A stretch of 64,000 bases of DNA from Chrysomallon squamiferum (GCA_012295275.1 CM022677.1:23622001-23686000); one strand, 5' to 3'. Shown: positions 22,373 through 61,091, numbered from the stretch's first letter. Numbers and translations are program-made. Notes: a model not told the origin generated them from the letters alone.

Positions 22373-22382
22373 GTTATTATTA

Positions 22383-22431: not shown

Positions 22432-22432
<1 letters not shown>

Positions 22433-22452
22433 TTCTTTCTTATTTAACTTAC

Positions 22453-22831: not shown

Positions 22832-22871
<40 letters not shown>

Positions 22872-33982: not shown

Positions 33983-34091
33983 TCAGTTTCTTTCTGACAC
34001 CGGATTATCATAAGCCATATATTCTCTTTTCTCTTTATTTTTGTATAACGGATATTTCATACTTAATTCTCCCTTTTTCTTTTTCATACTT
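33983..34091 (-). CDS. Gene 3 cytoplasmic-tail (last) exon
   Basis: ttcag| phase 2; [35 protein letters not shown]. Confidence 0.85.
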
Positions 34092-34528
34092 CTGAAATGA
34101 AATTTATTTATCAATGTTAGTAAAGTGACTAGTCAGCAACTAAAACAGAATTTAAGCAAATTGATACATACACACACAAACATACAAAAATGCAGTATAA
34201 AGTAAAAATATATATAATAATAATTATCCATAAATTATTGAAAGGAAACTCTTGTTTATGGACCCAGGCCAAGGCCAAATGAGAGAGGTGTTGTGACTCA
34301 CTGTTCAGGGATAATGAAACATATCTTGTTAACTGAATATACAAATAAAAGGGAACTTCAAAATTACCTTTTCTTAAATGCATACAAAGCAATTAGAGTG
34401 ATAGCCATTGCAGTTATTACAGCACCAAATACTTTAAACAAGTATGCAGGTATAGTAGCTGAGGAGAAATACATAAATAAAAACAATATATAATGCTATA
34501 CTGGGTGGTATATATAAATGTATGCATG

Positions 34529-34581
<53 letters not shown>

Positions 34582-36307
34582 GGGGGTTGTTCTGAACTAA
34601 AATAACTACTTAACCAAAAAAGTTTAGCAAGTTTTTGTAAATGACTGTTGCTTCCAAATAAATTAAAATAAAGTGATAAAACTTGGTAATATGTTAATTG
34701 TATATGCCCTGTTGCTTTGGGTAATGAAAATATCACAATTTGTCATACTGCACTGAACCAACATTATCAAAAAGGAAAATGAAGACTTTATCCTGTTATA
34801 ATGGATTGCCATCCAGGCTTAACTGAAAATCAACATCATGAAGCAATGGGATGGCATAACGCCACAGGTTCAAACGTTCTCCATGATTAGCCCGGACTTT
34901 GCAGCAAACTATAGGCACTAGAATTCATGCTGAAACTGTCCATAACCGTCTCCATGCTGATGGATTACAAGCACATCGCCCTGTTGTAGCTGTTTCTCTG
35001 ACAGTGCATCACATTGAGGAACATCTGAGATGGGCCAGAATACACCAACACTGGCGATCAGACATTATTCACAGACCAATCCATGTTTTGTGTTCAGTTT
35101 GCAGATCGTAGGTGTCATGTATGGAGGAGACGAGAGAACGATATGACGCAGAAATGTCATTCAGCATGCATTGGCAGTATTAATGAAAGGTCCAACATTC
35201 ATGGTGGAGGTAAAACAGATCTCGTTTTCATTCACCGAAACATGACTGCTCAACGTTACAGCGATGAGATCATTACACAAGTGGTCATTCCATTCCTGCA
35301 GCAGCATCCTGGTTTTCTGTGTCAACAAAACAATGCTAGACCACATATCTTCTTGAGTGGAACCACATTCAAGTGTTGAACTGGCCACCAAAGTCACCTG
35401 ACTTGTCCCCAGTTAAGGATGCATGGGACCTACTGAGCCACAGGGTACACAAAAACTATCCTTATATCTTTAATGTTCATGACCTACAAATTACTCGGGA
35501 ATGGAACGCAATTACTGTTCCTGAGATTAATGTTCTCATTAGAAGCATAAGACGATGACGTATTGCTGTCTTCAATGATGCTGGTGCAGCACACACACAC
35601 ATCATTGAGCCCTCTCACCATTTTGGTAGATATACCCACTGTTTCATCAGTAACAACGTTGACATCATGACAACATGTTACTGCTGGCTACATTCAGAAA
35701 TGTTGTATCAAGGAAATAATGTGTACAAATAAATTCAACATCCAATCAGGTTGTCTGTATTTCATATCTTGTACGTAATTGCTAAACTTACTTTGAACAG
35801 TATATACATCATACACATAGGCAAATCATAAATAATACCTAGAATAAGACAGTATACATCTATCTACCAATCTATCTATCTATCTATCTGTATTTCATGT
35901 ATTATTACATTTCTCACTTACACTACAACAATAACCTCTCCTACTCCTCATCATAATAACAATACTAATATTAATAACAACCATGAATAGGTAAATAAAT
36001 AAACAAAAAAATATATATATAAAACAAAATTAAAAATAGCATGAAGAAAAACGAGAAATAAAAGTGCAGAGAGACCTTCAGACTTTTCTCCATTTTCTTC
36101 TTTTGTGCTGATAGCTGTAAAGTTTTCTGGAAATAAATATAGATTATCAGGTAGGCAGCATGAAATAACTAAATGAACAACAAAAATATGTCTGTTCAGT
36201 TTAGAACTTTTTTTTTAATGTCCCCCTCTAAATAGATAAATCAATAAATAAAGCTAGAATAATGATAAAAGATAAAGTAAAAATAATAATAATAATAATA
36301 ATAATAA

Positions 36308-36338
<31 letters not shown>

Positions 36339-36981
36339 AAGAAGAAGAAGATGATGAAGATTAACTACTTTTCAAGTGGAAATAATTTGTATTTCCTTGC
36401 TAAAACACTGAAGTAATACAAAATAATAAGAGATAAATTACTAATCCCAGACAATACATTTTAGATTATTATTTCTGTCAAAAACATTCAGTCTATTCTT
36501 ACCTCCAGACATTTCTGAAATAAATAAATAAAAACTGAAACAAATGGGTAATAAAATATATCTGTTTAAACTTAAAACTAATTTGCTTTCTATGTCATAT
36601 GATAAAATCATTTGTCAACTATCTGTTAGTTCCACGAGTGAGTGTTTATCTAGACACCTTATTTTATATCTTCGAGTTAGGAATATCAATTCATGTCATT
36701 TATTCTGGTGTAAGAGATGGTGGCAATGCTAGCATGATTCACTGGTTGCCTGCTTTTATAGATAACCCAGCATAATTATGTACACAGACAGTGTATTTTA
36801 TTACTAAAATTCACATGCTGCTGAAAGCTAGTTCTTTGTAAAACACTGCAATAATGCAATACATAATAATATGAGACAAACTGTCAATGCTAGACAATAA
36901 ATGTCAAATTGTAAGATATAGCTAATATTCTTACCTCCAGTATTTCCTTGAACAATGGGATATGTTTCTGAAATAAATATA

Positions 36982-37025
<44 letters not shown>

Positions 37026-37313
37026 ACATTGTAATAACAGAAGTATTATAATTACCAGTGCAGACAGGAAGGTTAATTCATGTTTAATCATCATAATTAA
37101 TTTGCAAAGAGGAATTCGAAACAGAATACAGATCTGTACAGTTCAGACATCAGTTTTTTAGAGGTGAAAATGTTTTTGAGATATCTGAAATAATCAAATA
37201 ATGATGATGCTGATCTACAGTTAAGACTTCATTTGATAATTCTGTCTTCTTCAAAGAGTTTATTTTATTCTTACCGGGAGTATTTTCCTCTGCCACCTTA
37301 TTTATCACTGAAA

Positions 37314-37348
<35 letters not shown>

Positions 37349-37562
37349 GCAAGCAAGCAAGCAAGTAAATAAGTAAACAAATACATAGATGATCAATTAT
37401 ACCAAACAGTCAGCTTTGTTACAAATGAGGTTACATTGTGGTAGAAATATAATAGAAAAATGGCCAAGATTTTCAGTTGGGCAGAAGCTTTGCATGTAAT
37501 GAGTTTAATGTGAGTTGAGTCACAAACATATAAAAAAAAAATAATAATAAAAAAAAAAAAAA

Positions 37563-37601
<39 letters not shown>

Positions 37602-38662
37602 AATAATAAAATAAAATAAATTAATAAATAAATATTAATAAATATCAACTACAACAACAACAACAATAGCAAAAATAATAATACAGAAGCGAATGAAAAT
37701 AAATAATATGATTACCAGAACATAGAGGTACAATACAGTCTACTAAATCAGTATCCAAATTAGGGCCTTCACAATACTGTCCTCCAGACTTTGGTGATGG
37801 TCTTTCGCAGATCCGTATTTTGACACGAACGCTCTTTACAGTGCCAGGAGCTCCACAGGTTGACTTGCAAGGGATAAGAGTAATTTGCCATGAGGACCAT
37901 CCTCCATCAGCTGTATAAATCAATTTAATATTTATTACAAATATTTTTCTTTTGAAATTTCCCTAAATAATAATGAAAAAAAAATAATAAAATAAAATAA
38001 AATAAAATAAAATAAATAAAAATAAATAAATAAATAAATAAATAAAAATAAATATCATACTTTTTAGATAATTGTAAGTTTTCTATTCTAAAGCTAATGT
38101 TATCATCATCATGATGAAGATAATAAAATGTTAGGTGCTGATTTATCATTCAGATCACGTAAAAGAGCAGCAATGGCTGCACCATTTGTCAGCATATCTC
38201 TCACATAACAAATCATTCAGCATTTTTGTTCTTTGTCAAGAAAAACAATCTAAAAAAAAAAAAAAAATGCTTTTATTGTCAGGTTCCTTATATAGATTGT
38301 AAATTTATTAGCTATAAAGTTTGCTATTATTGAAAAACACTTTGCTGAATTTCCATTTCTGCATTCAATGGACAATCATAAAAATTAAGATATAGTCAAT
38401 TCATTGCACCCATAGAGTAATAGAAAAAACTCCCAAGAAGCTAGTAAAATAAAAGATGATCAGTCATACCAAACAATCAGCTTTTGGTTCACTGAGCTTA
38501 CATTCTGGTAGATTCGTAACTAAAAAATTGCAGACAGCATGAAGGTTTGCATATATAGAATTTAAAATCAGACGAATCAAAGGCACGAACAAAATAAATA
38601 AATAAATAAATTTAAAAGGTGCAGGAAAATAATAATAATAATAATAATAATAAAAATAAAAA

Positions 38663-38693
<31 letters not shown>

Positions 38694-39544
38694 AAATAAA
38701 TAAAAAATAAAAAAATAAACATACAAATAAATGTAACAACTAAAGTATTACAATTACCAGTGCAGAGAAAAAGGTGACATTCAGCTTTAATCATCTAAAT
38801 TAATTTGCAAGTGGATATTCATCTTAAATGCCAAACATATTCATAACTCAATATAAATTAAAAGAAAACATGAATCGAAGTTAATTAATTTCAAATGATG
38901 TGACTGTACAATTTAGATATTACTTTATAATTCTTTTCCCCCAGCATTTTTTGACAAAAGTGTTTTGGTGTTAAAATATTCAAATGATGATCAGGATGCT
39001 GATGATGATGATGATGATAACAACAACAATGACAACAACAACAACAACAACAATAATAATAATAAGTGTCTACTATTAATTTCTTTCCCTAAAACATATT
39101 TGTAATATTTGTAATATAGAATAAAATTAGACAAAACATCAATCCCAGACAATAAATGATGAATTCTGCAGGTTATATTTGATAATTAACTCTTCTATAG
39201 AACATTTGATCTATTCTTACCAATAGTAGTTCCTTGAAGAATCGCTGAACTTTCTGAAAAAATAAATAAATAAATAAATAATACATTGTAATAACAGAAA
39301 TATTATAATTACCAGTGTGGAGAGGAAGGTTACATTCAAGTTTAATCATCAAAATTAATTTGCTAGTGGATATTCATCTTAATTGCTAAATGTATTCATA
39401 ACAGACTACAGGTTTGTACTGTTTATACGTCACTTTACAATTCTCTTTCACAATTTTTTTATTTATTTTATTTTTTGGGGGGAGGGGAAATATTTTAGTG
39501 CTACCTGAAATATTCAAATGCTGCTGCTGCTGCTGCTGCTGCTG

Positions 39545-39594
<50 letters not shown>

Positions 39595-39929
39595 GTTGAT
39601 AATGCTGATAATAATACTAATAGTAATAATAAAAGTTAATTTTCATGTCAATACTATTCATATTACTAAATTGCTAAAACAGGAATGAATGTTTAATGTC
39701 ACACCAGCATGAAAAACACTGGGTGTCAAACAAAGGCAAATATAACAAAATGGTGATTGCTAAAACAGTGTCATAATACATGTTATAAAAGAGACAAAAT
39801 ATTAACCCCAAAAATTTAATTTTTGAATTTTGTGAATTAACACTTCATTTTATAATTCTATGTCCCTCATGGATTTTGTTTTATTCTTACCTCCAGTATC
39901 TCCATGAGCCACCTGTTCTATATCTGAAA

Positions 39930-39968
<39 letters not shown>

Positions 39969-42900
39969 ACAAAGAAACAAATAAATAAGCAACCAAGCAA
40001 ACATGCAAGCAAGTAAATAACCAGACAAATACATAGATGATCAATTATACCAAACAGTCAGCTTTGGGTGCAAATAAAAAATGGCCGAGATTTTCAGTAG
40101 GGCAGAAGCTTTGCATATAATGAGTTTAATGTGAGTTGTTCTAAAGCTGATGCTATGATATTATTGTATCATCATTATGACAAAATAACAAAATGTTAGG
40201 TAATGAAATGTTAGGCACCATTTGTCATTGTATCTCTTGCATGACAGATTGTTCAGCTTTCGTGTTCTTTCTGTTGACTATAATATGTCTGTCAAGAAAA
40301 ACAATCTACAGAAGAAAAAAAAAATTCTTCTGTTGTCATAGACCTATTAGTTATAAAGTTATTGTCATAGTGAAGTCAAAATTCGTATTAAAATTTGTTA
40401 TTTTAGAAAAATCTGTTTAAAAAAAAAAAAAACATAATTCATTAATCGTAAAAAGTAAAAATTAAATCCATAAATAAATATATAAATAAATAAATAAATA
40501 AATAAATAATAATAAGAAGAAATAAATCAACACAAAATAATTTAAAAATAGAGTGAAAACAGAAATGTTATCTGTTTCACATTTGAATAACTTTAACACA
40601 CACACACACACACACACACATTGATTTTTGCCAGTTAGGAATGATTACTTTGATTTACAATGATATTAAACATAGACCATCTACTTTCACATTATCTGTT
40701 TCCCTACATTAAGCAAAAGAGACAATGAAAATGGTGGATTTCAAATACAATAAATGGAAATATAGAAATAAATCATGCATTTATGTAGCAGAGATTTCTC
40801 TAATGATGTACTCCTTTTCAAATTAAAAACAGTAGAGATATTTTCTGCTGCATAAACATGGCAGCTGGACTGATTGTTAATATTTTTGTGATTCATTAAC
40901 ATAAATGTGTTCTGTTAGCCCTTTCGCTATTGCTGAATGGACTATTAGTCTTTCATTTTCTATAATGTTCTAAATAACTAAATAATCTCTGATCAATGTA
41001 TTCATTTATTCATGGATAAAAACTGCAAAAAATGGAGTAATTTGCAGTGGACAAAGTTAGAAGAACGGGCTCTATTTTCACCCTGCAGCATGTGATTATG
41101 GTCTGTAATGCGCACACATTAACTCTTACAAACACATGCATGAAATTATCTCAGGGACAGTCTGAATTACCCACATCAATGCATGGTAACCAGTAAAACC
41201 TAACAATGTTGTTAAAATATCAGTGTATGAAGTTTCCGTGCCATTCTCCACAACGATGACAAACACATATGTCCCTTTAGCCTTTTTAAAATGAAAATGA
41301 GATACCTAGCCACTGTCAGCTATTCCTATATCAATGGCAATTAGATTAATTTAAAGGTGCTTTTCTCTGATGTTGGGTGAAAAGTGGATCAACCTAAGGA
41401 CATGTACTGTGCAGTCATGTTAAATGTAAACTGTATCTCCCTTAAACAGTTGTACAGCTGCTTATGTATGACAGGAAGTCTGCAGAGTATTTGACAATCT
41501 AGTCTTGATGTTGTAATCTACTCTTGCTGACGTCATTAAATTATCCCAGTTAATTGAAAATGAGTACAAAATATCCATATAATTTAAGATGTTGTTCTCA
41601 AGCACAAATCGATAATCTAGCATCAAACATATCAGTTCTTTTGCATACTTATAACGTGGAGACTCAGTAACATTTTGTCAAATAAAGTAATATCAACCAA
41701 AAATAAAATAAAAAATAAAACAACCACAGCATCATCACAAATATTTACAAATACATTTTTTAAAAATTCCACAAAAAACCCAAATACAAAAAATAAAAAA
41801 ATAAAAATAATATATAACAAAACAACAGCAACAAATAAATAACTGAATAAATAAATAATAAACAAAATTATATATATATATAACAAAATTAAAAATAACA
41901 CAAAGAAAAACCTTTAGGATTTTCTTGGTTCATAGCAGTACCTTGTTCTGGAAATAAATTTAGATAGCAGGCAGGCTAAACAAACAACAAAAATAAGTCT
42001 GTTCTGTTTAGAATATATTCTTAATAATGTCTCTCTCTAAATACATAAATAAAGCTAGAATACTAATAAAAGATAAAGTATTTATTTATTTTTTATAATT
42101 TACAATAAAAAGTACCTATTATTATTATTATTATTATAGTTCTGCTGTGTTTATTATTTTTGTCAGATGTGGGACACTATATTACTCCTAAGCAAGTATA
42201 TTTAGAATATAGTAACCTTTTCAAATATGAACATTAATAAATATAATTTAAAAGTAGAATTAACCTAATTTGTGAATAGAAATGCAACAAAAACGCTAAT
42301 CATGTAAAGTATTTTAGTGGTAATATTAAGATGCAGACTAAATGAATTCTCTTTATGATTCCGAACTATGATATTATTTCTTTCTACATACCAGCCTTTT
42401 CTCATATAACATGCATAGTCAGTTTCTTTGTTTCTTATATCGGTCTTTCAACAAGCACACATGCTTTATACATACAACTGCACAACATACATTCAAAACA
42501 CATGTACAGGGACCTCCTGTATTAAGAATAAATAGAATAGTTAATGCAATTAGTATAGTGTCGATGAAATCTGCGTGATGATTACCTGGACAAGGTATTT
42601 GCGAACAGCCAGAATTCATATTCATCACATCATTCCCTGGACATGGAAGTCCTCCAAACTGTGGTTTTGGATTTGTACATGTTCTTTTGTACTCCGTCTG
42701 TAGAGTACCTTCTCCACAGGTAACACTGCACACACTTTGACCTTCACTCCAAGATGTCCATCAACCATTGACTTATAAACAATTATACATTTCATATTTA
42801 TTACTCTGAAAATAACTATTTTTTTTTTTTTCTGTTTTATTTCATTATTAATATTATTGTTTTTTTTTTTTTTTATTTATTTATTTATTTATTTATTTTA

Positions 42901-43748
42901 GTTTCTTTATAAACAAAATGTAAATATAATAATGTTTTGCCAACAACTGAATGCATTTTTAAACCCCGTACCAATTAGATGCATGGCTAACAAATTTAGA
43001 AATCTGAAATTTTTTTGAATGAAATCTAAAAACAGGATTAATGTAACTGATGAAAATCAATATGACTGTATATGTAACATTAAAACTAATTCTTTAATAG
43101 CAACAACAGGAATTACTCTTAATATATTGTGAATTATACAAAGAACGTTCCACCAGCCAGGGATTTGATTTATCATTTATATATACATATATATTATAAT
43201 TTAATCAGATAATGATGAATACGAATTCTGGCTGTTCGGAAATACCTTGTCCAGGTAACCATCTCGCAGATTTCATTGATACTATACTAACTGCATTAAC
43301 TATTCTATTTATTCTCAATAAGATAATGAAATAACTAAATATTTGGAAAAAAACAAAAACTCAAGCAAAAACAACACAGCTTTTTTCTCTATTAAGAACA
43401 ACTGATTTAGTTAATGAGAATGAAATCTATGAATTTATTACCTGGACACTGTTGTTCCCAACATTCATTTATATCTCTCATCTTAGTAGATTCCCCTGCA
43501 CAGTCTATTCCTCCATATTGTGGTTTTGGATTTGTACACATCCTTGTGAAATGGATCTGTAAAGTACCTGTTCCACAGGAAACACTGCATGCACTACCAG
43601 ATACTGACCAAGCTGACCATCCTCCGTCAACTTATAAAGGAAATTAGACATTTTACATCTTAAAATAACTTATCACATAGCAATTTTATCTTTTTATTTT
43701 TTCTTATATTTTCTTCTTATTATTTTTATTTTATTTATTTATTTTCTT

Positions 43749-43780
<32 letters not shown>

Positions 43781-44064
43781 TTTTTGTTTCCTGATGCATT
43801 ATTTATCCGTATTTGGTATAAACAAAATATGAATAAAATAATGTTTCCAACAACTCAGTGTATTTCCAAACTCTCAGTACTTATTAGATGACTGGCTAAC
43901 ACATTAAGAAAATAGTAAATTAAACTGACACCTTTCTATTAATAAAATTTAAATATAATGACTAATAAAATTGATTAACATAATCAGTATAAATATAAAA
44001 TAATAAGAACAGTTTATTACCTGGACAATTTCTTTCACAGCAAGTTTTTGTGTGTGTGCGTGTG

Positions 44065-44098
<34 letters not shown>

Positions 44099-45601
44099 TT
44101 TGTGAGTGTGTGTGCATGATGATCATTATCAATAAGATAATGCAATCATTATATTTTTTAAAAACGATACTGCGTTTTTCTCTGTTAAGACAAATTTATT
44201 CATTTAAAGAAAAGAACAATGCAGATTTATTTACCTGGACAGTGTCCCTTCAAACAGATACTTGTATCTCCACTCCTAGTCAATTTCCCTGCACAGTATT
44301 TTCCTCCATATTGTGGTTCTGGATTTGTACACTTCCTTTTTAAAACAGACCGTTGAATACCACTTCCACAGGTAACACTGCATACAACTCGACCTTTCTC
44401 CCAAGATGTCCACCCACCATTGACTTATAAAAGTAATTAGATACTTTACATTTCATTACATTCTTAAAATAACTTATTTATTTATTTTCATACTATTATT
44501 ATATTTATTTATTTATTTATTTATTTATCCTTACTTGGTATAAACAAAATGTAAATATAATAATGTTTTACATACAACTGAATGTATTTCAAAACCCCAA
44601 TACTGTTTAGATGACATACTCAAACACTTAAAAATATATATATATATATATTTTTTTTGCTTATAATTTTTATTTGTTTTATTTAATTTAATTTTATTCT
44701 ATTATTATTATTATTTTTTTTTTTTTTTTTTTTTTAATATTTTATTTTCTGTTATCTTCTTCTTCTAAACTGTTTTCATACTTCTGCAAGTCTCTTACTT
44801 GGACAGCTTTTATCCCTACAAGTAGTTGTATTTTTACTCCTAGTAGATTCCCCTGCACACACTTTCCCTCCATATTGTGGTTCTGGATTTGTACATTTTC
44901 TTTTGGAAACTATCTGTAGAATACCGTTTCCACAGGTAACAGTACACACCTCTTGACCTTGGTCCCAAGATGTCCACCCACCATCGACTATAAAAGTAAT
45001 TAATACTCTTAATAAAACTTATGTACCAGTGTTATGTATTCCTATGATTCTTCTTCTTCTTCATCTTCTTCTTCTTCTTATTATTATTATTATATAAAAA
45101 GTGAAATAAAAAAAAAAAAAAAAAAATTATAATAAAATATCACTGACTCATAAAGGTAGACACTTTACATTAAATATTCTTGAAAAACTTATTCTGTAGC
45201 AATTTTATTATATTGTTTTTACTTATTACTATCATTAGTTTTCTTTGATTTATTTATTTATATTTTAATTTTATTTTTTATTTATTTTTGTTTCTTCGTG
45301 CATCATATCCTTATATGATACAAACAAAATATGAACTTAATAATGTTTCAACAACAACAGCAAATATTTGAAGACCCCAATATCAATTAGGTAAGTGGCT
45401 AACACACTTAGAAAATAATAAATTTATTTGATATCTTTTAGTAAGAAAAATTAAAAATAAGATTAATGTAACTGGTGAAGAGCAATATGATGCATAACTA
45501 AATATTGAACCCACAATAATAAGTAATTATTTTAATATATACTATATTATAACAAATAATGATTTTTATGTTATTTAATTGAACAGTGAATGAACTCATA
45601 T

Positions 45602-45632
<31 letters not shown>

Positions 45633-46328
45633 CATACATACATAGATAGATACATAGATAGATAGACAGACAGAAAGATAGATAGATAATCATTATGTGC
45701 AAGATAAAAAAAATCTTTAAAATATCTTTAAAAAATAAATACACCACTTTTCTTTATTAAGAACAATTTATTTATTTGTGAGTGTATTACCTGGACAGTT
45801 CATTTCCCAACATGTACTTGTATTTCTGCTCGTATGAGATTTTCCTGAACACACACTTCCCCCATGTTGTGGTTCTGGATTTGTACATTTTCTTTTGAAA
45901 ACCGTCTGAAAAGTACCGTTTCCACAGGTAACACTGCATGAACTTTCACCTTTCTCCCAAGATGTCCACCCACCATTGACTTACAAAAATAAGAAAACAC
46001 TTTACATTTAAATACTTAAAATAGCTTTTGGTCTAGCAATTTTATTTATTTATTTATTTATTTACTTTTGTTATATATCCTTACATGATACAAAGAAAAT
46101 ATGAAATTAATAATTTTAACCAACAACAGCACATATTTCAAGATCCCAATACCAATCAGGTAAATGGCTAACACATTTAGAAAATAATAAATTTATTTGA
46201 TATCTTTTAGTAAATTTATTTGATATCTTTTATATCAAAGAACGATTTTTATGTTATTTAATCAACCAGTGAATGAACTCATACATACATACATAGATAC
46301 ATAGATAAATATATAGATATATAGATAG

Positions 46329-46379
<51 letters not shown>

Positions 46380-49016
46380 CATTATGTGCAAGATAAAAAC
46401 AATCTCTGAAAAATCTTTAAAAAAAATACACCTCTTTTCTTTATTAAGAACAATTTATTTATTTGTGAGTCTATTACCTGGACAGTTTCTTTCCCAACAG
46501 CTACTTGTATTTTTACTGATAACAGATTCTCCTGAACACACAGTCCCCCCATTTTGTGGTTCTGGTTTTGTACATTCTCTTTTGTAAACCATTCGTTGAT
46601 AACCATTTCCACAGGTAGCACTGCATGAACTTTGAATTAGCTCCCAAGATGTCCACCCACCATTGACTTACAAAGGTAAGAAAACACTTTACATTTAAAT
46701 AATTAAAATAACTTTTGATCTACAATAATATTATATATTTTTTTAAATTTATTTATTTATTTGAAAAAATGCACACATGCAAATAAGAATTGATGATAGT
46801 CAGTTAGATTGAAGCACTGGAACCAATAAGCTGTTGTTAAAATATATTCTACATGATCCTGTTGATTATACTGTGGTGTCAGCCTAATTTCCTTTATATT
46901 TATATATTTTTTCTCTGTGTTTTTTTTCTTTTTAATCACATGCACACATATACACAGTTTTTGTTATTTATTTATTTTAAAATCTTTTTATATACAAAAA
47001 TTATTTTGTCTTTTAATTTCTTATTGTTTTATTTAATTTAATTTTATTCTATTATTATTATTTTTAAATTATTTTATGTTTTATCTGCTATTATCTTCTC
47101 TTTTCTCTTTTTTCATATTTATTAAAAAAAAAAAAAAGAAAAAAAAAAGTTCAAATAAATAATAATAATAACAAAAAATCACCAATCATGTACAATGAGC
47201 CACTGGCAACTAACATACTGGTGAAATATGTTGTACAAGATGGCATTTATTCATTTATTTATTTATTATTATTATTTTTGTTATTAATTATATCTAATGT
47301 TTATTTTTATTTTTTTATCTGGTTGTCTTATTACCTATTACCTATATATATATATATAGATAGATAGATAGATAGATAGAGATAGATAGATATACAGATA
47401 TAGCTAGTATATAGAAGATAATAAAATCAATAAATATTTGCAAAAACAATACAGCACGTTTCTCTGCTAAGAACAATTTATTAACTTAAGGATGTCTGCG
47501 AGTTTATTACCTGGACAGTGTTTACCCCTACAAGTAGATGTATTTTTGTTTGTAGTAGATTCCCCTGCACACTCTGCTCCTCCAAATTTTGGTTCTGGAT
47601 TTGAACACTTCCTTTTGAAAACTGTCACCAGAGTACCGTTTCCACAGGTAACACTGCATGAAGTTTCACCTTCCTCCCAAGATGCCCACCCACCATTGAC
47701 TTACAAAGGTAATGAAATAATTTACATTAATAATCTTAAAATAATGTATGACGCAGAACATTTATTTCCAATGTTATTTACTATTATTATGATTATTATT
47801 ATTATTATTATTTTTATATATATATTAAAAAAATATAAATATAAATAAATAATAATAAAATACCGCCAACAATGTTCTTGAGATTGATAATTGTAAGATT
47901 TTTCAAAATATAATCTACAAGACTGCATTTATTTTTCTCATGTGTCAGCATTTTTCTTTATATTTCATTTTCAATGTTTTTCTTGATCTCCTGTTAATAC
48001 ATACATGTATATGAAAATTCTGCAATTTATTACCTGGACAGTATTTTTCCAAACAGGTAATTGTATTTCTGTTCACAGTAAATTCACCTACACAATGTTT
48101 TCCTCCATATTGTGGTTCTGGATTTGTACACGACCTTTTGAAAACAGTCTGTAAAGTACCATTTCCACAGGTAGCACTGCATGAACTTCCACCTTTCTCC
48201 CAAGATGTCCACCGACCATTGACTTACAAAGGTAAGAAAACACTTTACATTTAATACTTTTAATACAACTTATGATGTACCAATTTTATTTTCAGTGTTA
48301 TTTATTTAATAATTATTATAATTATTATTATATAAAAAAGTTAAATAAATAAAAGAAATAATAATAAAATATCATCAACTTATAAAGGTGATCAGACACA
48401 TTATATTACAAATTCTTGAAAAATTTATGATGTAGCAATTTTATTATAATGTTTTTACTTTTCATTATCATTATTTTCCTTTTATTTATTTGTTTGTTTG
48501 TTTGTTTATTTATTTACTATGTTTTCTTCATGTTTATAATATCCTACTATATGATACATACAAAATTTGAAATTAATAATGTTTTACCAACAACAGCACA
48601 TATTTTAAGATCCAAATACCAATTAGGTAAGTGGCTAAAACGCTTAGAAAATAATAAATTTATTTTATATCTTTTAGTAAGAAAAATTAAAACTAGATTA
48701 ATGTAACTGGTGAAGAGCAATATGACTGCATACATAATAGTAAAACTAAATACTGAACAGCAATAATAAGAAATTATTTTAATATATATTATAACAAATA
48801 AAGATTTTTATGTTATTTAATCAAACAGTGTCTGATTTCATGTACACACACACACATAAATAAATAAATAAAATGATAATGATAAGTAAAAGCATTATAC
48901 TAAAATTGCTACATCATAAATTTTTGTAATGTAATGTGTCTGATTAGCTTTATAAGTTGATGATATTTTATTATTATTTTTTATTTATTTAACTTTTTTA
49001 TTTAAATATATTATTA

Positions 49017-49047
<31 letters not shown>

Positions 49048-49055
49048 TGATAGAC

Positions 49056-49087
<32 letters not shown>

Positions 49088-49580
49088 TGATTGATTGATT
49101 GATTTATAATCATTATATATAAGAAAAAACTGAGAAATCACTAAATATTTGAGAAAAAAAAAAAAAACCACTTTCCTTTATTAAGAACAATTTATTTATT
49201 TGTTGGTGAACACTTTGTGAGTTTATTACCTGGACAGTTTCTTTCCCAACAGATACCTGTATTTTTAATGATAACAGGTTCTCCTGGACACAAAAGTCCT
49301 CCATTTAGTGGTTCTGGATTTGTACATTGTCTTTCAAAAAGTGTCAGTTTAGTACCGTTTCCACAGGTAGCAGTGCATGAATTTAAAGCTTTCTCCCAAG
49401 ATGCCCACCCACCATCGACTTATAAAGGTAAGCAAAACATTTACGTTTAATATTCTTAAAATAACTTATAATCTAACAATTTCATTATCAATTTCTTATT
49501 ATTATTAATATCTTTGATATTTTCCTTTTATTATTTATTTTGTTATTATTATATTGAGTTTATTTTTTCTTATGTAATCA

Positions 49581-49626
<46 letters not shown>

Positions 49627-49949
49627 TTGTATTTGTATAAAAAGTTAAATAAATAAAAAAATATATTTTAAGATCCTAATACCAATTAGGTAAGTGTCTA
49701 ACACATTTAGAAAATAATAAATTTATTTGATATCTTTTAGTAAGAAAATTTAAAAATAGGATTAACGTAAGTGGTGAACAGCAATATGATGCATATTTAA
49801 TATTAAAACTAAATACTGATCCATGATAATATGAAATCATCTTAATATATACTATATTATATCAAAGAACAATTTTTTTGTTATTTTATTGACCAGCATC
49901 TGATTTCATACATACATAGATACATAGATACAGAAATATAGATAGGTAT

Positions 49950-49981
<32 letters not shown>

Positions 49982-52900
49982 TCATTATGTATAAGATAAA
50001 AAAAAAATCTAAATATTTGAAGAAAAAAAAAGAATACACCCCTTTTCTTTATTAAGAACAATTTATTTATTTGCTGATGAAAACTCTGCGAGTTACCTGA
50101 ACACTGACTTTTCCAACAGTATACTTGTATTTCTCATTATAACAGATTATAATTGGTTACTGTCTTAAGATTTCAACTTTATACTGCGAGGGCTAATAAC
50201 ACGAAATGCATATATTAGAATGACAGAAACCAGTTGTTTCTTTAATCTATACCACCTCAATATATATATATATATATAAATATATATATTTTCTCAAAAA
50301 ATCTTATCAATATGTTTGTTTTAGTATGAAAGTCTATTTTATCATGTCTTATCACTTGTTTCTTAACATACAGAAGTACAAATTATTTAGTATTCTTTCG
50401 AACCAGAATAACACTTCTTGGTTTATTACCAATTTTACATGGCTCCATACGAATTTTAGAACGGTGGCCTGTACAGTTTTTGCCACCAAATTGTGGTGTC
50501 GGTCTGTTACACTCTCTGATTTGTAGCACCTCAACTGCAGATGTTCCACAAGTAGCACTGCATGGTCCTTTGATGTCATAAGACCAAGTACCCCAGCCTC
50601 CGTCAACTAAAAAAAAGCAACAACAAACAACCTATTTATTTAACTGACAAACTTAACTAATATATGCAAATAAAGAAACAAATCTTCACAAAGTTTCTTT
50701 AACACTATTTGAGATTAAGTGACCTACATTGTGACGTGTTGTTATATTATTTTGTCGCATGTACGATCCAACTATTACTGATAACGAATAAAGGGGTCAT
50801 TACAGTTCAAATCACCAGTGGGTTTAACAGATTGGATTTTGCTTTAATTTGGTTTCTTGTTAGATCTTGAAATGACTAGCCCAAATCTGAAATATTAGTT
50901 CAATCGGTGCAGTTTTGGTGATATGAGACCCTAAAAATTCAGCTTTTTGCTAAAAAACTAAAAAATATATATGATTGTCACCACCCTTTTGAGACCCTGA
51001 TATCATGGTAATATGGATCGGTTCTGATGAAACTGCTGTCATTGGAAAGCTAACTTAATATATTATGGTCACCTGTTGTTTGACCTTGAATTCAACCTTG
51101 TCCTTCATTTGACCTTTAAATGACATCAAGTCAAAATTAAATTTAAAATATTACCTATACCATAAAATAATTTTTCCCAGATACACTATTCTTTAGATTT
51201 GTAATAAAACAGATCATACTTGACAATAAAATGCACATTTCACCACTTCTAAGGCATCTGTTTATACAAATACGAGGCTGTACAAACTTTGTCTAATTTT
51301 GGTGCTTTGTTGTATCATGACAACACCCTTGAAAGCATTTTATAAGAAATATGTAAAATAATTTTGGGCATTTAGAAGCTTTTGTTGTTATCAAGGCAAT
51401 GATTCAGAAGTCTAAATTTAATCACTAAAAGTGTTACTGTTTCCCCTGACCCAGTTATTTTACGAATGTAATAATTGATCCATTTGGGTTGAAATTGTAA
51501 GATCTGGTGCTTTGTTGTATCATGACAACACCCTTGATCCTCATCTTCTCAATCCAACATCTGTCCTCAGCTCCAAAACAGATAAATAGATGGTCCATGG
51601 AGACACATAATATTGATGTGATAGTCTCCATGCTCATCTGAATCAGGCCGGTATATGGTGTTCATTTAAAAAAAAAAAAATTGTCATTTCAGGTTTAGCT
51701 GTTATGTCAAATGTTTTTTCTTATTACTGAATACATAAACAGCTGGAAAGAAAATTGTCTATGAGTTACTTTTTGATTCTGTTATGGCAGGTAGTTTTGT
51801 TCTGTTGGTACCAATCCATTGCTGGTATATTCTGTTTATACAAAACATTCCTTAATTGCCCCATAATATACTTTTTATCCTACATAGAATACAGATTTCT
51901 AATGGAAACTTTCAAACATGATTTAGCTTTAGATTAGGGTTGTTTTTACAGACTTGGACAAACATGAGTTCCTGATAATCTAACAAGAACAAACCATTTT
52001 GGAGCAATGCTGCTAGTGAAAAAATCCAATCTGGTTAGGATTCTTTCCAGAAAAAAATAAGGCTCCTAGATATTCAATAAAAAAAATAGCTGCTTTTGAA
52101 TATTATACCTTCTTAAAAACTAGGAGAATATTTAACTGCAGGACATATCTGATTACTTTCATGAAAACTAATAATCTCATTTTCAGTTCATCTGACAAAA
52201 CTTTACCCTTATTCTTATCTCATTATCCTAATACAGCTTTTAAAACTATTTTGTTTGTGGCTGCAAACTGCCTCATAATCCTGCCTGTATTCCTAAATCA
52301 TAATCATCCAAGAAATGGATTGAAGATCAAAAGGTAAAAAGGTTATGTCAATTTAGATTCGGGATTCTTATCAAATTAGCTTTCCAGTTTCATCATAATT
52401 GACCAACTGGCTAGCAAGATATATCTGTCTACAAAAGGGGTGGTCAAAATTTGAGGGCCAAAGCTACTGCTCTGATTGAATTAATTTTTGAGAATTCGAC
52501 TAGAATTTTGTTTATAACTGGTAAAGGACATGTTTATACTGATGAAAGGTTTTATTCTAAAAAGTTCTAAGAGAATTGAGCATCTTGTTTCTGATAAAAC
52601 AGTAATAAATGAAGTAAATATGTTTATTACTTTAATACATTGCTTATTAATTTATTTAGATATTCATTCATATAATTAATAATAAACATCAGCAGTGGTA
52701 ACAATGATAGATAGCAATTATGTCTGAGTTTGTTCACAAAAACTGCAACTTACCCAAGTTGCTGTTACTGTTAATTTATTTGACTATTTTTGTATATTTA
52801 TCTGCAAACAAATTGTTTCATATTTTCTTAATGGTAATATTGTTATATATTTTATCTGCATAACTGTTATTGATTTTGTTGAAAGTATTTTCGAAGCTGT

Positions 52901-54043
52901 GGACAAGAAACTAAAATTTTACCAGCATCAAAACTATCAACATTTAACTCATTTAATAAATGAAAAGACTAAATAAAGGATTTCCTAAGACAAATATAAA
53001 AATAAAGACAGCAAATAAATGCACAATAAACAAAATATTTATTAAAGAGAATAATTTCAGAATTACTACTAGATAGTTAAATAGATATATACATATACTT
53101 ATAATATGTGAATTTATATATACAGTAGTTGTGAGCCAAAATCCAAGTTATGAGCAAGCTTCAGATATGCTGCCGCTAGATGGCACAACAAACAACCTAA
53201 CATCCAGCCAGCATCCTGCATCTCACTCGTTTACTTCACATGGTTAACTCACCATGGAAGAATCTCTGTTGTGTTGTGCTTTTTTCTGACCAAGGATCCT
53301 AAGGAAGTGAGTGCAAAGAACGGTGCTGAGAAGAAGAAGTGGATGATGTCCATTGAATTAAAGCTTGAATTCATAGAAAAACATGAGCGAGGTGTGCATG
53401 TAGTCAACTTGGTTAGGCAGTACAAGCATAGTATTTCTACGATATGTACCATGCCGAAGCTGAAGGAGTCAATAAAGACTGCAACTCCAGCCAAAGGCAT
53501 TAAAATAATGTGTTTTATCTCCAAGAAAATACATGTCACAAAACCAAGTTATTTCTTTATTTTCTCTTTTATTATTTTTTTGTTGTTGTCAATATTTGAC
53601 ATTTAAAAGTACATTTTTCTTATTTAAAATCATGTTACAAAAAACAAAACAAAATAGTGTGGTTTTTGGGTGGCTGGAATGGATTAATGGTATTTCAATT
53701 AGGTTCATTTGGGAAAATTGATTTGATATACGAACAAATTGAGATACGAGCTTGGTCAGAGAACAAATTAAACTCGTAAGTCAAGGTACCACTGTTTATA
53801 TATATATATATATATTTGTATGTATGTGTGTACATACAAACACACAACATCATATGAATAAAGTTAATTTCCTAACAAATTATATCAAAAACACTTTGCT
53901 AAAATATAATAAAAAGTATAAAACAAATTTTTTCTTTCCTTTTGTACAATATATAAAATAATTTTATAAAATAAGTTCAACATAATTAAGCAATCCAGCT
54001 GAATAGTTAGATATTTACAACAAACTTAGAAGAAACAACATAA

Positions 54044-54091
<48 letters not shown>

Positions 54092-55543
54092 AACTACATA
54101 AAAACCAAAATCTTATAATACCGTTTGATCACTTTGTTAGACAATGACACTCTACATACCTTTCTCACAACATGTCCTTGTCGCAAGACGCCGACTCTTC
54201 CCAGGGCAAGGTGCACCATGTTGACTGGGTGCAGGATTAGCACATAATCTCATCATTATAATTATCTGTCCACATGAGGTCGAATTACATTTTGAAATTC
54301 CCTGAGTAAACCACACGCTCCATCCACCATTCACTAAAATAAAAATTACAACTACTGAGCTCTTGAAAGTATTTATACCTTGTAAGTAAATTGAAATTTA
54401 TAATGATTTCAGAAGAATCCTAAGAAAAACAAATTTTAGCAAGCTCTCTGAGCATATGAATTGCCTGTATCACGTTTTTCTCCAAAATATTTTGAAAACA
54501 AAATTACACTGACACTGATTTAAATTTGTTTTTAAAAGAAACAACAATAGTTCTAAAATACTGATAATTCACAGGTTGTGTTACCATATGTTTATTTAGT
54601 TGTGCTATACTACCTAGATTCAATAAAACCAACCAGCATTATCTTATCCTATCCGCTACTAGATTCTTTTTCTATGTTAAACATGTTTTATCAGACAGCT
54701 TACACATATGAAATTATTTTTATTTTAATAATGAATTTGCATTCTCATCAAAACACTCTATAAAATCATGAGTAAAGGAAAAAATAAGCATTATATGTAT
54801 CATTAATTTACTGATGTCTCGTTACACAGATCTAGTTTAATTTTATACATTTTAATTTGAAAATATTTTATTCCATTCACACCTAAAATGTCTGTATTTG
54901 ATCTAGAGATATGAAATTTGGTAGAAAAACATACTCATATATGTTTTCCTTTTTTATTTTTATTTTTTTTTTTTTTTTTTTTTTGTTGTTGTTATTTTGT
55001 TTCTTGTTTTGCTGTTATTTTGTTTCTTTGTGTAGTGTTTTTTCTTTGCATATTCTTTCTGTGTTGCATTTTTGTTCTTTCATTTTTCGTTTTTTTTTCA
55101 TATGGGAAAAGAAATATTTAATTTTTAAATTTACTTTCTTACTGTACTAACTGACCTATCAGAAGAAAAAAAAAATAGATATACGCTAACTATACCAATA
55201 CATTCTGCTGTACGAAAACACTTCCGTATCTCAGTTTTCTGATTTGGCCCTACACACTTCTTTCCATTTCTCGAAGGTCGAGGGTTCATACACAGTCTGA
55301 AGAAAGGAAGTATATAACTCCCAATGCCACAAGTTGCATCACAAGGTTTCAGTGCTCTTTGTCTCCAAGAAGTCCATCCACCATCCAATGCCCCAAACCC
55401 ATTTTCTGAAAATTAAATGTTTTTTACAACTGTAACTATCACTTATTCTTAACTTACAATAATGTCTTATAAGCCGCAGGATACTGAAGTACATAAAGAA
55501 ATATTTACATTAGTGTTATTATTCTAACATTTATGAAATTACA

Positions 55544-55582
<39 letters not shown>

Positions 55583-55612
55583 TAGTGCTACTAGTACTAC
55601 TAATATCAATAC

Positions 55613-55649
<37 letters not shown>

Positions 55650-55896
55650 TTGTACACATTTATTTATTTATTTTCTGTGTGTGTGTGTATGTGTGTGTGT
55701 AAAACCTCTAAGTATAATTCAAATTCAAAGTATTTATGACATCAGCATTTCATTTGTCCTGAAATTAATTTAGCTAAACGTTCTTTTTAAACTATTTTTG
55801 GAACTGAGCTTTACTATACTTCAGCTTGAAAAAAATAAGTTATACATATATAAATAATTTATTATAATTTGCTTATCTCAGTTCTTTAACAATAAC

Positions 55897-55950
<54 letters not shown>

Positions 55951-57176
55951 GAAAACAATGAAGAAGAAGAATACTCTTACTACATTGTGGTCGCCTACAT
56001 AATCGATTCAATACTTTTTCTGCAGGCCCTTGACATTTCAATCCTAGACCCTGTGGTTTAGGATTATTGCATTCTCTTTGAGTATAAATAGCGGTGTATC
56101 CATATCCACAAGTGACACTACAAGGTTTTTGACTTTTAATTTCCCATCTACTCCAAAAACCATGAACTTTGAAAAATCAGTTTAAAACAGGTTAAAATCA
56201 AAAACTAGAAAGACAGAAATCACAACAACAGCTCATTATTAAATAAATAAATAATAATTTATACAGTAGTGAGAACAAGACAACTTGGAAAGTTTCAAAA
56301 GCAAGCATCAATATTGTTAACGGACCTACTCATATTTTGATGTAACCTGGAGCATAATTCATTGGATGTGAAAAGCCTAATACATCTGGCGTAATATCAA
56401 TAGCTTTTAAAAAATATATAAGGTTTTAATTATTCTCAGCAATCTTTGGATAAAACATAATACATTTTGTATGATTGGAAAAGCCATTTTCAACTCAAAT
56501 TTATTATACTCAGCAGTCAGAAAGATTTGTTATAAATACATATTAAAGAAAAAAGCTTTTATATTTCAGTTATTGTGTTTCATACCTGAAATTTTGGGGG
56601 ATATGAAAATATGGGACTCCATAAAAAGCCTTTAATACAGTGTTCAGGAATGCATTATGAGCACAGGATGTTTTGTACATTAATGTTTATTATTTTTTAA
56701 ATGAACTAAATCATAATTGCCAAATCTATTCTGTAATTTTTACATTTATTTTTATTGATTTTTAGTTATTTATTTGTTTGTTTGTTTGTTTATATTGTTT
56801 ATTTAGTTATTTATTTATTTTTTTATTTATTTATTAATTTATTTTTTATTATTATTATTATTTTTTTTTTTTTTTCAAGTTTTTTTTTTTTTTTTTTTTT
56901 TCGGGAGGTTACAATTTTTTTATGCATTGTTTTTTTTTCAGTCTTCTTACCTGATTTGCATGCACCTCGTTTGCATTTTGTGACGAAAGGATAACTAAAC
57001 ATCCCGTAACAAAAGACATTCTCCCCGTCACAGTTATTAATGTTATAGACATATCTTTCACAGTCACGATTGCATGGCCCACTCATGTTTTTCCAAGATG
57101 ACCACTGAGCTCCATTCTTAGGATCTGTGTGTGTATGTATGTCTCTGTGTGAATGTGTGCATGTGTGTGTGTTTAC

Positions 57177-57212
<36 letters not shown>

Positions 57213-60200
57213 CTGACTTATACAGAAACAAAAAGAGAAAAATGTCATATTGGTATTTTTGTTCAACATTCTAATTATTTACTTATTCAGAATATTCACA
57301 AAAAGTACTGTTATATGAATTATGAACACAATACCAATCAGACAAGTGATGAGAAAGAAATTAAAAATTTTATCTAAATCTTTTAGCAGCACCAGTAGTT
57401 GCAAAACTGAAATAACCTCACAAGTAGCACCTTTTTCTAAATATTTACAGCATATGCGACAAACAACATTATTATTATTATTAGTAGTAGTAGTAGTACT
57501 TAACTATATGGAGAAACCGCTTTTCTTGAAAATATTCTAGCATCATGTCAATATGAACAATCTATAACCTGTGTGTGTGTGTGTGTGTCTGTAGGTGTGT
57601 GTGTCTTTTTACTTAAAAACATTAAATATATTTCATGTTTTGAAGTTGAAAGAAAGACTGCTTTGACACTATATTACTTTAATCGGTCAAAAAAAAGACA
57701 CTGTACATACGTTTCTCACAGCAGTCCCTGTCAGAATAACTTTCAAAGGCCCCAGTACATGCTGAGCCAGTCACACTAGGTGCAGGGTTTGTACATAACC
57801 TTCGGTAAGTAACTTCCTGGTGACAGTTCGAATTACATTTTGTAACGGTATGAATAAACCAATTATTCCATCCACCATTCACTGAAAACAAATTACCATT
57901 ACTGAACTCTATATCTTCTAAGTAAACTATAAATGTATTATCACTTCAAAAGAATCTTACAGAAATAATTACATCAAGTTTTGTTAGCAGACAATTTAGC
58001 ATTTATCTAACAGGTTTCTCAAAAATATGTCAAGAAGAAAATATACTTTTGTTATTCTGTATTTAATTAATTAATTTATTGTTATGAAACTGTTTCTAAA
58101 TTATCGTTAAAATCCTTAAGATAATCATCGAAACTAATTATAGTCTAGTTTTGTACAGAAAATATTACTCAAATTATAATAAAGATGAAATTATTTTTGA
58201 TAGCTGAATATGTACATGTGTGTGTGTGTATATGTAGATAGATAGATATATAGATATATAGATAGACAGATAGATAGATAGATAGATAGATTTTTCTTCT
58301 TGTTCTTTTCTTTTTTCTATTTTTCCTAACTATTTACATTACATCCAAACCAAACTGAAGTAACATCTAAAATACCGTATATACTTGTGTATAAGTCGAA
58401 TTTTGGGGAGACTATATTAAGGTAATATTTTGGGGGTCGACTTATACATAGGTAATGCTTTTGTAGCTGTTGCTGAAGAGTCGCCATTTTGACTATTTTT
58501 TGCTACAGGATGCATCTAAAATAATCGCAGTCTTTCAGCTTTTCAAAAATATAATTTTATCGTATAAAAAATTTTGAAAAATTAATTAACAAAACCAAAT
58601 ATGAATGTAAAACATGATATTCTTCCGTTTAATGACATAAAAATACATTTTAAAGCGAGAAAACCATCAGTACGGCGTTATGCCGTACGGCGTCTTGCAA
58701 TGATCTAGGAATGCAGACTTCTCTGCCAAATTGCACTAAATATCGGTCCTAATTTCATAAACAAAACTCACTTGTTTAATTGTAAAGAATTTGGTGAAAT
58801 AATATTGCAATCGTCATTAATATCCACTACCGACAAATTTTGTAAATCATAGAATGGCTAAATATAAGTTAGGTCTCCATGTTAGACCTATTACATTAAA
58901 GAGATACTATTTATGATACATTTAGGCTACAGTTCGTGTAATACATGCATTTACGTTATTATGGTGTGTTCGTGCAAGTTACAGCTCATGCAAGTTATGT
59001 TACAGTAGGTGTACAATGTAGGCCTTCATGGCACTGTCACACTGGTCTAAAAATAGTGACGTGCCTGGAATCTACAGTCGACTTATACACAAGTAATACC
59101 TAAAATGACGCAATTTTTGGTCTTAAAATACACATCGACTTATACATAAGGTCGCCTTGTACACAAGTATATATGGTAAGACATTGATTATTAAATAGTT
59201 ATCAATAAAACTGAAGAATAATATGGTGCCTTGGTCTAGAATATCACATCATCTGGTTGTGTAACTGGCCAAAATGATACTGGGGCGTTAGACAGCCACA
59301 TCGACATACACACAATTAACTAGCCATTTATAAATCATTGGTCCTTTGTGGACAAATCCCAGTGACTCCTCAAAATGTCTGAAATTTTAAATTACCTCTG
59401 AATTCATCCTTTCATTAACACTGCAATCATTGTTAAGTCTTGTCATCTGGCACTCTCATGCATCATAATTGAACATAAACTGGTCTGATAAGATGCACAG
59501 TGTAAGCTACTTTTAACTGTAAACAGTTTCATAGGCAAAAATCTTATTTCATTCACATCTAAAACGCCTGTATGTTTTTATTAGAGATATGGATAAACTG
59601 TCACAAGATATGCAATGATTTAGAAGACTTAAATATAGTGCTCAGTTGTGAACACATACTGTGTCCAGTTTCGTATAACTTTTCTTTATTATTATTAACA
59701 CTAGTAATCAGATATTGTAATTTGCTAAACATTTGCTAAAAAAAAAACATGATTAAACTTGGCTGGAGGTGATTTAGAAGACTTAAAAATTTGAACTAAA
59801 AAAATTATTAAAACCATGATTAAACTTGGCTGGAGGTGAGAATCTCCATTCAGTATTTACTTTTTCTTTTGTACTTTTTTCTTTATTTTTTTATTTCTTT
59901 TTTCTTTTGATTTTTTTTTCTTTTAGTTTATTTTTACTTTTTTTTTTTAACTTAAAAAATTGGTAAACTTACTCAGATTGAATTATTTAAGTTACAATTG
60001 TCAAAAAAGTACATACAACAATTATAGTATACCTGTACATTCTTTTACTTGAAAACACTTCTCGTTCTCAATTTTGCTACTTGCCCCTACACAATTCTTT
60101 CCTTTATTCAAACGTGGAGGGTTGTTACATAATCTGATGTAATGAACTATATGATATCCAATTCCACAAGTTACATTACAAGGTGGCACTACTGTTTGTA

Positions 60201-61050
60201 TCCAAGGAGACCATTCACCATCCAGTGACCCAAACCCATTTTCTGAAAGACAAATGTTTGTATGTATAACGACTTTCTCTGAAAGTAAAATAAAATGTTA
60301 ACATTTTAATTATTTTCTCCTTAATATTCAATTCTAAAGATGACCATTAGTAAGGTGATTCATTTTAAATTTTTAAAAAGTATAATGGTAAAACATCAGC
60401 AGATTCAAGTATGTAGAGTAATATATTTATTAGTTTTAATATTAACTGTTTGTTATTTATCTTTATCTATATTTAAATATCATCAAAGTGCACCAATGAT
60501 ACAGATAAAAATATATGAAGGAAAAGCAGAAATAGATTTATGAGAGATGTATTATTTATTTTTTATTTCTAACTTAGGTTTTGTTAATCAGTTTAAAAGG
60601 AAATGCACTTCTGAATTCAGCTTCAGGATAATTCAATTTGTAAAACTTCTATTTATATAAAACACATAATTTTAAATCGTTAAGACATATTTCTTATTTG
60701 ATTATATAATATTACTTTATTAGATATATTCTCTTATTGATCTTCCTCTTCTAATTAATGTCTCACATTTCTTCACCGAAACAAAATGTAATAATTGTGT
60801 AACTGCATTGCATCCACATAATAAAACAATAACAACTACTGCTTCATCTACTACTACTACTACTACTAATAATAATAGTAAAAGGAGAAGAAGAAAAAAT
60901 ACTCTTACTGTATCAAAATTTCTTGAAAAATATGATTTTAAATAATTTCAGACACATATCATCTGATTGTAATAAGATATGCTATTAAATTTCATCTGTT
61001 ACTTTCCTCTTTATTTATTATAATTTGCTTTTATCAGTTCTTTACCAAAG

Positions 61051-61091
<41 letters not shown>

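Follow-up and report, generated by a model that had tools for sequence, protein, structure and literature searches.

Alternative splicing caused by inverted repeats has been called well known (PMC6549551), and several systems come close to the locus studied here. In CHM, a 1,752-bp intragenic inverted duplication involving exon 12 has 8- and 4-bp microhomology, FoSTeS/MMBIR was proposed as its origin, and a predicted hairpin was accompanied by skipping in RNA (PMC8756506). In MANBA, a 13.1 kb Alu-mediated inverted duplication of exons 8-11 was associated with cDNA in which exons 8-9 or 8-10 were skipped, and the allele gives a shortened protein with residual activity (PMC6549551). On the side of DNA repair, the templated insertions of MMBIR (MMB-TI) copy a nearby template in inverted orientation, show microhomology or microhomeology at their junctions, return to the original strand, and accumulate as germline variants (PMC8421209). 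Inverted Alu pairs are linked to loop-out exon skipping, the more so with a weak acceptor, and have an evolutionary effect on isoforms (PMC13019027), while the long-distance interaction of SMN2 exon 7 and the stem-loop of MAPT exon 10 are examples of pairing that occludes the 5' splice site and hinders U1 snRNP (PMC7404189).

At the present locus, one TSP1-module exon of a receptor gene model carries an in-frame stop codon, and its donor region is repeated, inverted, in the intron upstream. The likeness to the CHM allele lies in an inverted copy of an exon region within a neighbouring intron, in microhomology at both junctions, and in a predicted pre-mRNA hairpin. However, the CHM copy takes in the whole exon, lies downstream of it and is pathogenic, with out-of-frame skipping that was observed, whereas here the copy is ~105 nt long, covers the donor side only and lies upstream, its arms have diverged by 7%, a stop is present, and skipping is predicted and in frame. 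With the MANBA allele it would share a template-switch inverted duplication with microhomology and skipping explained by a hairpin (here predicted), but that event is recent, pathogenic, far larger and backed by cDNA. The first of the two inverted copies described below resembles an MMB-TI in being inverted, near its template and flanked by microhomology; the MMB-TI search was for templates within 100 bp, whereas here the template is 585 nt away, and an effect on splicing does not enter the definition (PMC8421209). As with inverted Alu pairs, a long intramolecular duplex is linked to exon skipping (again a predicted outcome), but both Alu arms are intronic transposon copies flanking the exon, whereas here the arm copies an exon-intron junction of the gene itself and is predicted to lie paired across the donor. 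Predicted pairing over a 5' splice site is also the point of contact with SMN2 and MAPT, whose structures are short, tuned, experimentally probed and on coding exons, in contrast to the 108-nt near-perfect duplex made here by duplication. The mechanism is thus already known from the human CHM and MANBA alleles, of which this would be an old and tolerated invertebrate counterpart; what sets it apart is its small size, its restriction to the donor, the preserved frame, its age, the stop that followed and the recurrence of such a copy within one gene. Poison exons (AS-NMD) are stop-containing cassettes that are conserved and regulated; the exon resembles them as a stop-containing cassette with downstream junctions but derives from a domain exon and gives no sign of being conserved or regulated.

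The window (the whole stretch of 64,000 nucleotides of DNA that was analysed) is AT-rich animal DNA, with a GC content of 23-36% in 2-kb bins. A profile search, using a profile made from 27 exons of the same window and merging overlapping duplicates among its 50 rows by eye, detected 40 separate TSP1-module exons, every one of them on the minus strand: three in gene 1, 17 in gene 2 and 20 in gene 3. It is gene 3 that carries the stop codon and the inverted copies, and its model places the 5' end outside the window, past 63701. The features needed here are:

33983..63701, minus strand: gene 3, a sequence-only model with 20 TSP1 exons, 7 microexons, a transmembrane exon and a tail
33983..34091, minus strand: last coding exon of gene 3, the cytoplasmic tail, with two conserved tyrosine motifs common to gene 2
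34368..34458, minus strand: transmembrane exon of gene 3
41912..41947, minus strand: downstream 36-nt microexon, acceptor of the predicted skip junction
42586..42771, minus strand: TSP1-module exon with a stop, 186 nt, bounded by AG and GT, phase 1-1, in-frame TGA at 42761-42763
42772..42800, minus strand: acceptor of the stop-bearing exon, in the loop of the predicted hairpin, with 7/13 pyrimidines and no YTNAY motif at -40..-10
43442..43630, minus strand: intact TSP1 exon next upstream, which would supply the donor for the predicted skip junction

The stop-bearing exon reads NG-stop-W, the TGA being its third full codon. A sequence-only reading of this DNA had described it as the only stop-containing exon of gene 3, which holds for the 20 TSP1 exons of that gene in the window, and its TGA is the sole nonsense codon among all 40; the accompanying statement that siblings have Gly at this position was right for seven of eight, the other having Arg. 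The part beyond the stop scores 24.6 bits against Pfam TSP_1 (PF00090; cut-off 21.6 bits), one of two above the cut-off among the four exons scanned, and has the WxxW, six Cys and Arg of that module. All 18 residues that are invariant among the eight siblings are preserved (18/18). The donor, CAG/GTAATC, is normal for the array, where six of eight siblings have CAG/GTAATA. The acceptor, in contrast, is the weakest of the nine unit exons: a YTNAY motif and 9-11/13 pyrimidines are found in all eight siblings, although their motifs, at -11 to -14, sit closer than usual branch points, and two intact exons are equally weak by one measure each (50606, with no motif; 37910, with 7/13 pyrimidines). 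The stop-bearing exon also has the longest terminal branch (0.38; a neighbour has 0.33), and it appears to have decayed in part. Two ways around the stop were judged unlikely: selenocysteine or read-through at the TGA, from general background, and rescue by an in-frame acceptor past it, since the sequence upstream of all five internal AGs is purine-rich.

From exon 50606 on, the form that skips this exon gives 771 residues with one terminal stop, and the form that includes it stops at residue 567 of 834. Each of the nine upstream exons has an open in-frame donor option, and under the gene model no simple route other than skipping leads to a full-length receptor. In this model 175 nt separate the TGA from the end of its exon and 10 further exons follow, which, as in poison exons, is an in-frame stop well ahead of a downstream junction. 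A stop that far ahead of a junction with downstream exons usually leads to NMD, so inclusion predicts decay and not a product; it would also end the protein ahead of the transmembrane segment. No frameshift occurs among the 20 TSP1 exons of gene 3, and its other parts (the remaining 19 TSP1 exons, the 7 microexons, the transmembrane exon and the tail) are open. Gene 2, which terminates in a tail and transmembrane exon of the same kind, has a 1-nt frameshift in each of exons 20490-20711 and 10450-10629, with no inverted copy nearby, representing either assembly indels or a damaged gene.

The donor of the stop-bearing exon lies within a long inverted repeat, the parts of which are:

42520..42627, minus strand: template and 3' arm of the stem, comprising the last 42 nt of the exon, the donor CAG/GTAATC and 66 nt of intron
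43213..43320, plus strand: inverted copy, which forms the 5' arm of the pre-mRNA stem and starts 121 nt inside the upstream intron, its first 6 nt probably host-derived microhomology
43321..43329, minus strand: first copy of a 9-nt direct repeat that flanks the insertion
43207..43215, minus strand: the other copy of this 9-nt direct repeat, in which the first 3 nt match the template as well (return microhomology)

The arms are 108 nt each, separated by 585 nt, and match with 8 mismatches (93%), as the sequence-only reading had found by eye when it described an inverse copy of the exon's last 42 nt, its GT donor and 66 nt of intron; the distance it gave, about 440 nt upstream in the pre-mRNA, is 442 nt when computed from the acceptor. 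On the transcribed minus strand the mismatches are four G.U, two A.C, one A.A and one C.C; the four G-U pairs noted earlier were correctly counted, but one of them, at 43316, probably came from the host sequence where the insertion joins it rather than from a later substitution. The match scores 159 bits, compared with at most 35.6 bits in 10 locally (block-)shuffled windows, and is not due to chance. Among the best 25 of 62 inverted matches within 3 kb, it is one of two that are long and complex, the other scoring 198 bits (48314-48501 against 48844-49018), and the next best is a simple repeat of 71 bits. Within these same best 25 of 62, the only exon with its donor beneath a long inverted copy is the only one of the 40 TSP1 exons with a nonsense codon. 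If stop and covered donor were independent, this coincidence would be 1 in 40 (2.5%), or 3 in 40 (7.5%) when the two frameshifted exons of gene 2 are counted, both values being post hoc.

The origin of the copy can be read from its junctions. The intact sibling intron after exon 44423 serves as the empty site, a state inferred from this one paralogous intron; the entry matches it at 8/10 positions, and the arm's first 6 nt are identical to it and agree with the template at 5/6. Microsatellite tracts occupy the homologous site in all five of the other unit introns examined. Like an MMB-TI, the copy has a nearby inverted template and microhomology or microhomeology at its junctions. Because of this microhomology, the flanking 9-nt direct repeat and the microsatellite setting, it looks like a repair accident, likely one of microhomology-mediated template switching, a signature that overlaps with that of Pol theta end-joining. 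With the junction base set aside, the arms differ at 7/102 positions. Siblings polarise three of the seven (two on the exon side, one on the arm side) and CpG context suggests one more per side; decay is spread roughly equally over both arms. The exonic part of the stem holds two of the differences, each of which alters an amino acid and is placed on the exon side, in one case by 7/8 siblings and in the other by CpG reasoning only.

It had also been suggested that the stem masks the donor and loops out the acceptor, with folding proposed as a check. The 971-nt region folds at -299.5 kcal/mol (z = -15.7), and none of 20 shuffles was as stable. The mean probability that the donor is unpaired is 0.001 with the arm and 0.114 when the fold ends short of it, compared with 0.07-0.37 for five tested of the eight sibling donors; the acceptor is in the loop, 0.41 unpaired. 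The arm duplex itself is at -161 kcal/mol, with 104/108 positions paired. These figures are equilibrium predictions for naked RNA, and they agree with the earlier suggestion on both counts, giving an intragenic inverted copy predicted to pair over a splice site, of the CHM/MANBA type. The predicted hairpin would likely cause the exon to be skipped in frame, leaving the frame open through the membrane segment. The helix today consists of runs of 40, 2, 12, 24 and 26 bp, the longest unbroken run being 40 bp (24 bp if only Watson-Crick pairs are counted), and with its 585-nt loop it falls under the reported in vivo need, since Solnick and Lee (1987), as cited in PMC2275289, saw no in vivo effect below a perfect stem of more than 50 nt. 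At birth the stem would have had about 105 perfect pairs. A blocked donor can also yield intron retention or the use of cryptic sites instead of skipping.

The second long inverted repeat of gene 3 involves a decoy acceptor:

48328..48489, minus strand: template of the second copy, holding the decoy acceptor (AG at 48379-48380)
48856..49005, plus strand: second inverted copy, lying within a microsatellite tract at the homologous position in its intron
45146..45175, minus strand: paralogous decoy acceptor, with no inverted copy, a GAG end instead of AAG, and without the near CTGAT motif

This copy lies 211 nt past donor 49230 and has 9 mismatches in 149 aligned positions. Compared with the 7/102 of the first copy, its age is indistinguishable (Fisher p = 0.80), and both are younger than the duplication of the units, which have diverged by 16%. 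The decoy (48378) is 156 nt ahead of the real acceptor of exon 48222, and its use would add a stop at codon 13. The arm lowers its predicted unpaired probability from 0.40 to 0.001, whereas the real acceptor stays at 0.52 either way. Since the copy contains the decoy's junction, it must be later than the decoy. We read it as the same kind of accident as the first, tolerated because it covers only a decoy acceptor, and inverted copies are thus recurrent in gene 3. Both long stems, among the best 25 of 62 inverted matches, cover a site whose use breaks the frame, which hints that stems of this kind may mask sites in vivo, although this is one pair of cases and, for random templates of these lengths, the chance of covering a splice site or decoy is 27% and 41%. 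The paralogous decoy, which is unmasked, is weakened in sequence and the masked one is not. An excess of G.U pairs was considered as a mark of selection and rejected: the first stem has four G.U to two A.C (p = 0.69), the second has no G.U, three A.C and six others, and pooled without the junction base there are three G.U to five A.C. The absence of such a bias in either stem leaves no sign of selection on the stems.

The sequence-only reading had offered two outcomes, an inversion that silenced the exon, which then decayed, or a switch between receptor and truncated product, and the first is the better supported. The course of events that we consider probable, on balance, is an accident, the silencing of a redundant in-frame module, its decay, and finally a stop that locked in the skipping. 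A template-switch repair accident would have placed the 108-nt inverted copy in the upstream intron. As the arm is transcribed before the donor, it would be waiting when the donor emerges, and the stem could form in the nascent RNA with the copy lying over the donor. U1 binding and exon definition would be lost at the paired donor, 43442 would be joined to 41947, and the exon skipped in frame. The hairpin would have come first, and the stop and the erosion of the acceptor afterwards: once skipped, the exon would be free to gain the TGA, which in turn would make skipping obligatory. With at least 20 TSP1 modules in the gene, losing one would be nearly neutral, so no regulatory purpose is needed. 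This account fits the microhomology at both junctions, the like ages of the two copies, the near-total predicted pairing, the weakest acceptor and the 1-in-40 coincidence. Against it stand the retention of all 18 core residues, the broken helix with its long loop, and the death of exons without any hairpin (50097-50144; gene 2 exons 20711 and 10629). The first of these was gauged by simulating neutral change at 3-5% per site (20,000 runs): a stop arose in 22-35% of runs, all 18 residues were kept in 13-30%, and both occurred in 2.5-3.8%. The full retention strains the silence-then-decay reading only modestly, and the coincidence of stop and covered donor is the stronger consideration.

The same observations can be turned into the alternative that survives best, in which the hairpin stands by without effect or acts only in part, exon inclusion or intron retention persists, and this haplotype is a null or weak allele with its message cleared by NMD, as in birth-and-death receptor arrays. 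Core residues that look as if they were selected until recently, a neighbouring gene with two frameshifted exons and no hairpins, and helix runs broken around so long a loop all speak for it. We consider it unlikely, as it leaves the coincidence of the stop with the donor-covering copy unexplained, and must contend with a near-total predicted pairing of the donor and with a gene 3 that is open in every other exon. The assembly itself may not be clean, since the two frameshifts of gene 2 resemble long-read indel errors, and the TGA could be an error or a private variant in an exon that is intact (as its core residues are) and either constitutive or alternatively spliced under the hairpin. This is quite unlikely, given that no frameshift is seen across the 20 TSP1 exons of gene 3, that a substitution error would have had to make a stop in the sole hairpin-covered exon, and that the erosion of the acceptor is independent of the stop.

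It could be speculated instead that the frame-breaking sites came first, and that the inverted copies, perhaps from one multi-switch event, were selected as built-in antisense suppressors. Both of the long non-microsatellite local inverted repeats in the 64 kb (2/2, among the best 25 of 62 matches) cover a frame-breaking splice site and none a needed one, the two copies are of the same age, the second is later than its decoy, and of the paralogous decoys only the unmasked one is weakened. However, random templates cover some site often enough (the 27% and 41% given above), purifying selection on its own would clear away any copy that covers a needed site, more decay than was found would be expected if the stop were older, and the paralogous decoy shows that the gene manages without an arm, which together make such a rescue improbable. 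A long shot, in the same vein, is that micro-inversions arise at a microsatellite hot spot in the introns and serve as built-in antisense oligos, selected suppressors that trim and proofread a fast-evolving TSP1 receptor array.

ADAR has a preference regarding A.C mismatches, and a role for ADAR had been raised earlier; it finds no support here. A regulated switch, in which helicases, transcription speed or ADAR editing tune inclusion and so choose between a membrane receptor and an NMD or secreted product, is very improbable: the duplex is long enough as an ADAR substrate (104/108 paired) with two A.C mismatches, and inclusion would end the protein ahead of the membrane segment, but the junctions are those of a repair accident, a second copy occurs at a homologous site, the G.U count is no more than chance, the stop 175 nt before a junction with 10 exons after it predicts decay and not a product, and the TGA lies 134 nt outside the stem, so that this arm offers no template for editing it into a sense codon.

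If the skipping is real, the accident-then-decay reading would provide a natural and dated example of exon loss by a path described until now mainly as a rare cause of human disease, in which a single repair scar of ~100 nt is enough to silence an exon and the hairpin is then locked in by a stop gained later. Receptors built from repeated domains on symmetric phase-1 exons could alter their module number in this way without deletion, and a stop codon in an assembly need not equal a pseudogene. For the stem length and reach needed to mask splice sites in an invertebrate, an internal control is at hand in the two arms together with the paralogous decoy that is unmasked. A published case in which an inverted repeat led to exon skipping and then to nonsense or exon loss in evolution was not found, in a search that covered subscription journals thinly and is weak evidence of absence, and nothing relevant to the gene family appeared among the literature matches listed.

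Sequence searches placed the array in a broad context. Exon 43443-43628 gave 31 matches of 38 candidates among longer proteins, at 44-61% identity; these are generic TSP1-repeat proteins, the named ones mostly from molluscs, and include no same-species transcript or orthologue. Exon 19315-19500 gave 0/1 candidate, and exon 44236-44421 none among near-length proteins. Metagenome contigs yielded 8 loci from 185 pattern matches, at 43-58% identity, none orthologous, and neither these nor the protein searches returned a second haplotype or same-species sequence. Rfam gave no match across 43206-50700. Eleven public runs share DNA with the window, six of them 62-78% of sampled words and three 14-15%, and one is recorded as RNA, figures that say nothing on expression or genotype. 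The tails of gene 3 (33983-34091) and gene 2 (7387-7503) have 51% identity, with two tyrosine-containing motifs in common, and a two-sequence tail profile had no matches in 1.84 billion representatives.

Gene 3 has other dead pieces besides the stop-bearing exon, namely the decoy acceptors 48378 and 45146 and the remnant 50097-50144, which is the leftover 3' end and donor of a unit exon that has lost its 5' part. GC-richer intronic stretches (~34800-35700 and 53200-53800) look, by eye, like DNA-transposon remnants. The dN/dS of the stop-bearing exon (1.14) lies within the range of its siblings and is uninformative as a signal of decay. Among the eight intact unit exons (43442-49418) the mean pairwise dN/dS is 0.96-1.42, yet 18/62 residues are invariant; by this crude counting method, and with gene conversion possible, the combination is suggestive of surface residues under diversifying selection, a pattern known from recognition receptors. 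A four-exon TSP1 super-repeat occurs in several copies in both genes 2 and 3 (11461-28930; 54160-63701), and gene 3 also has the separate run of nine unit exons. In both genes, runs of phase-1 microexons of 12-51 nt form the pre-membrane stalk (36076-41947; 8580-9425), some with weak donors such as GTTTTT and GTCTCT.
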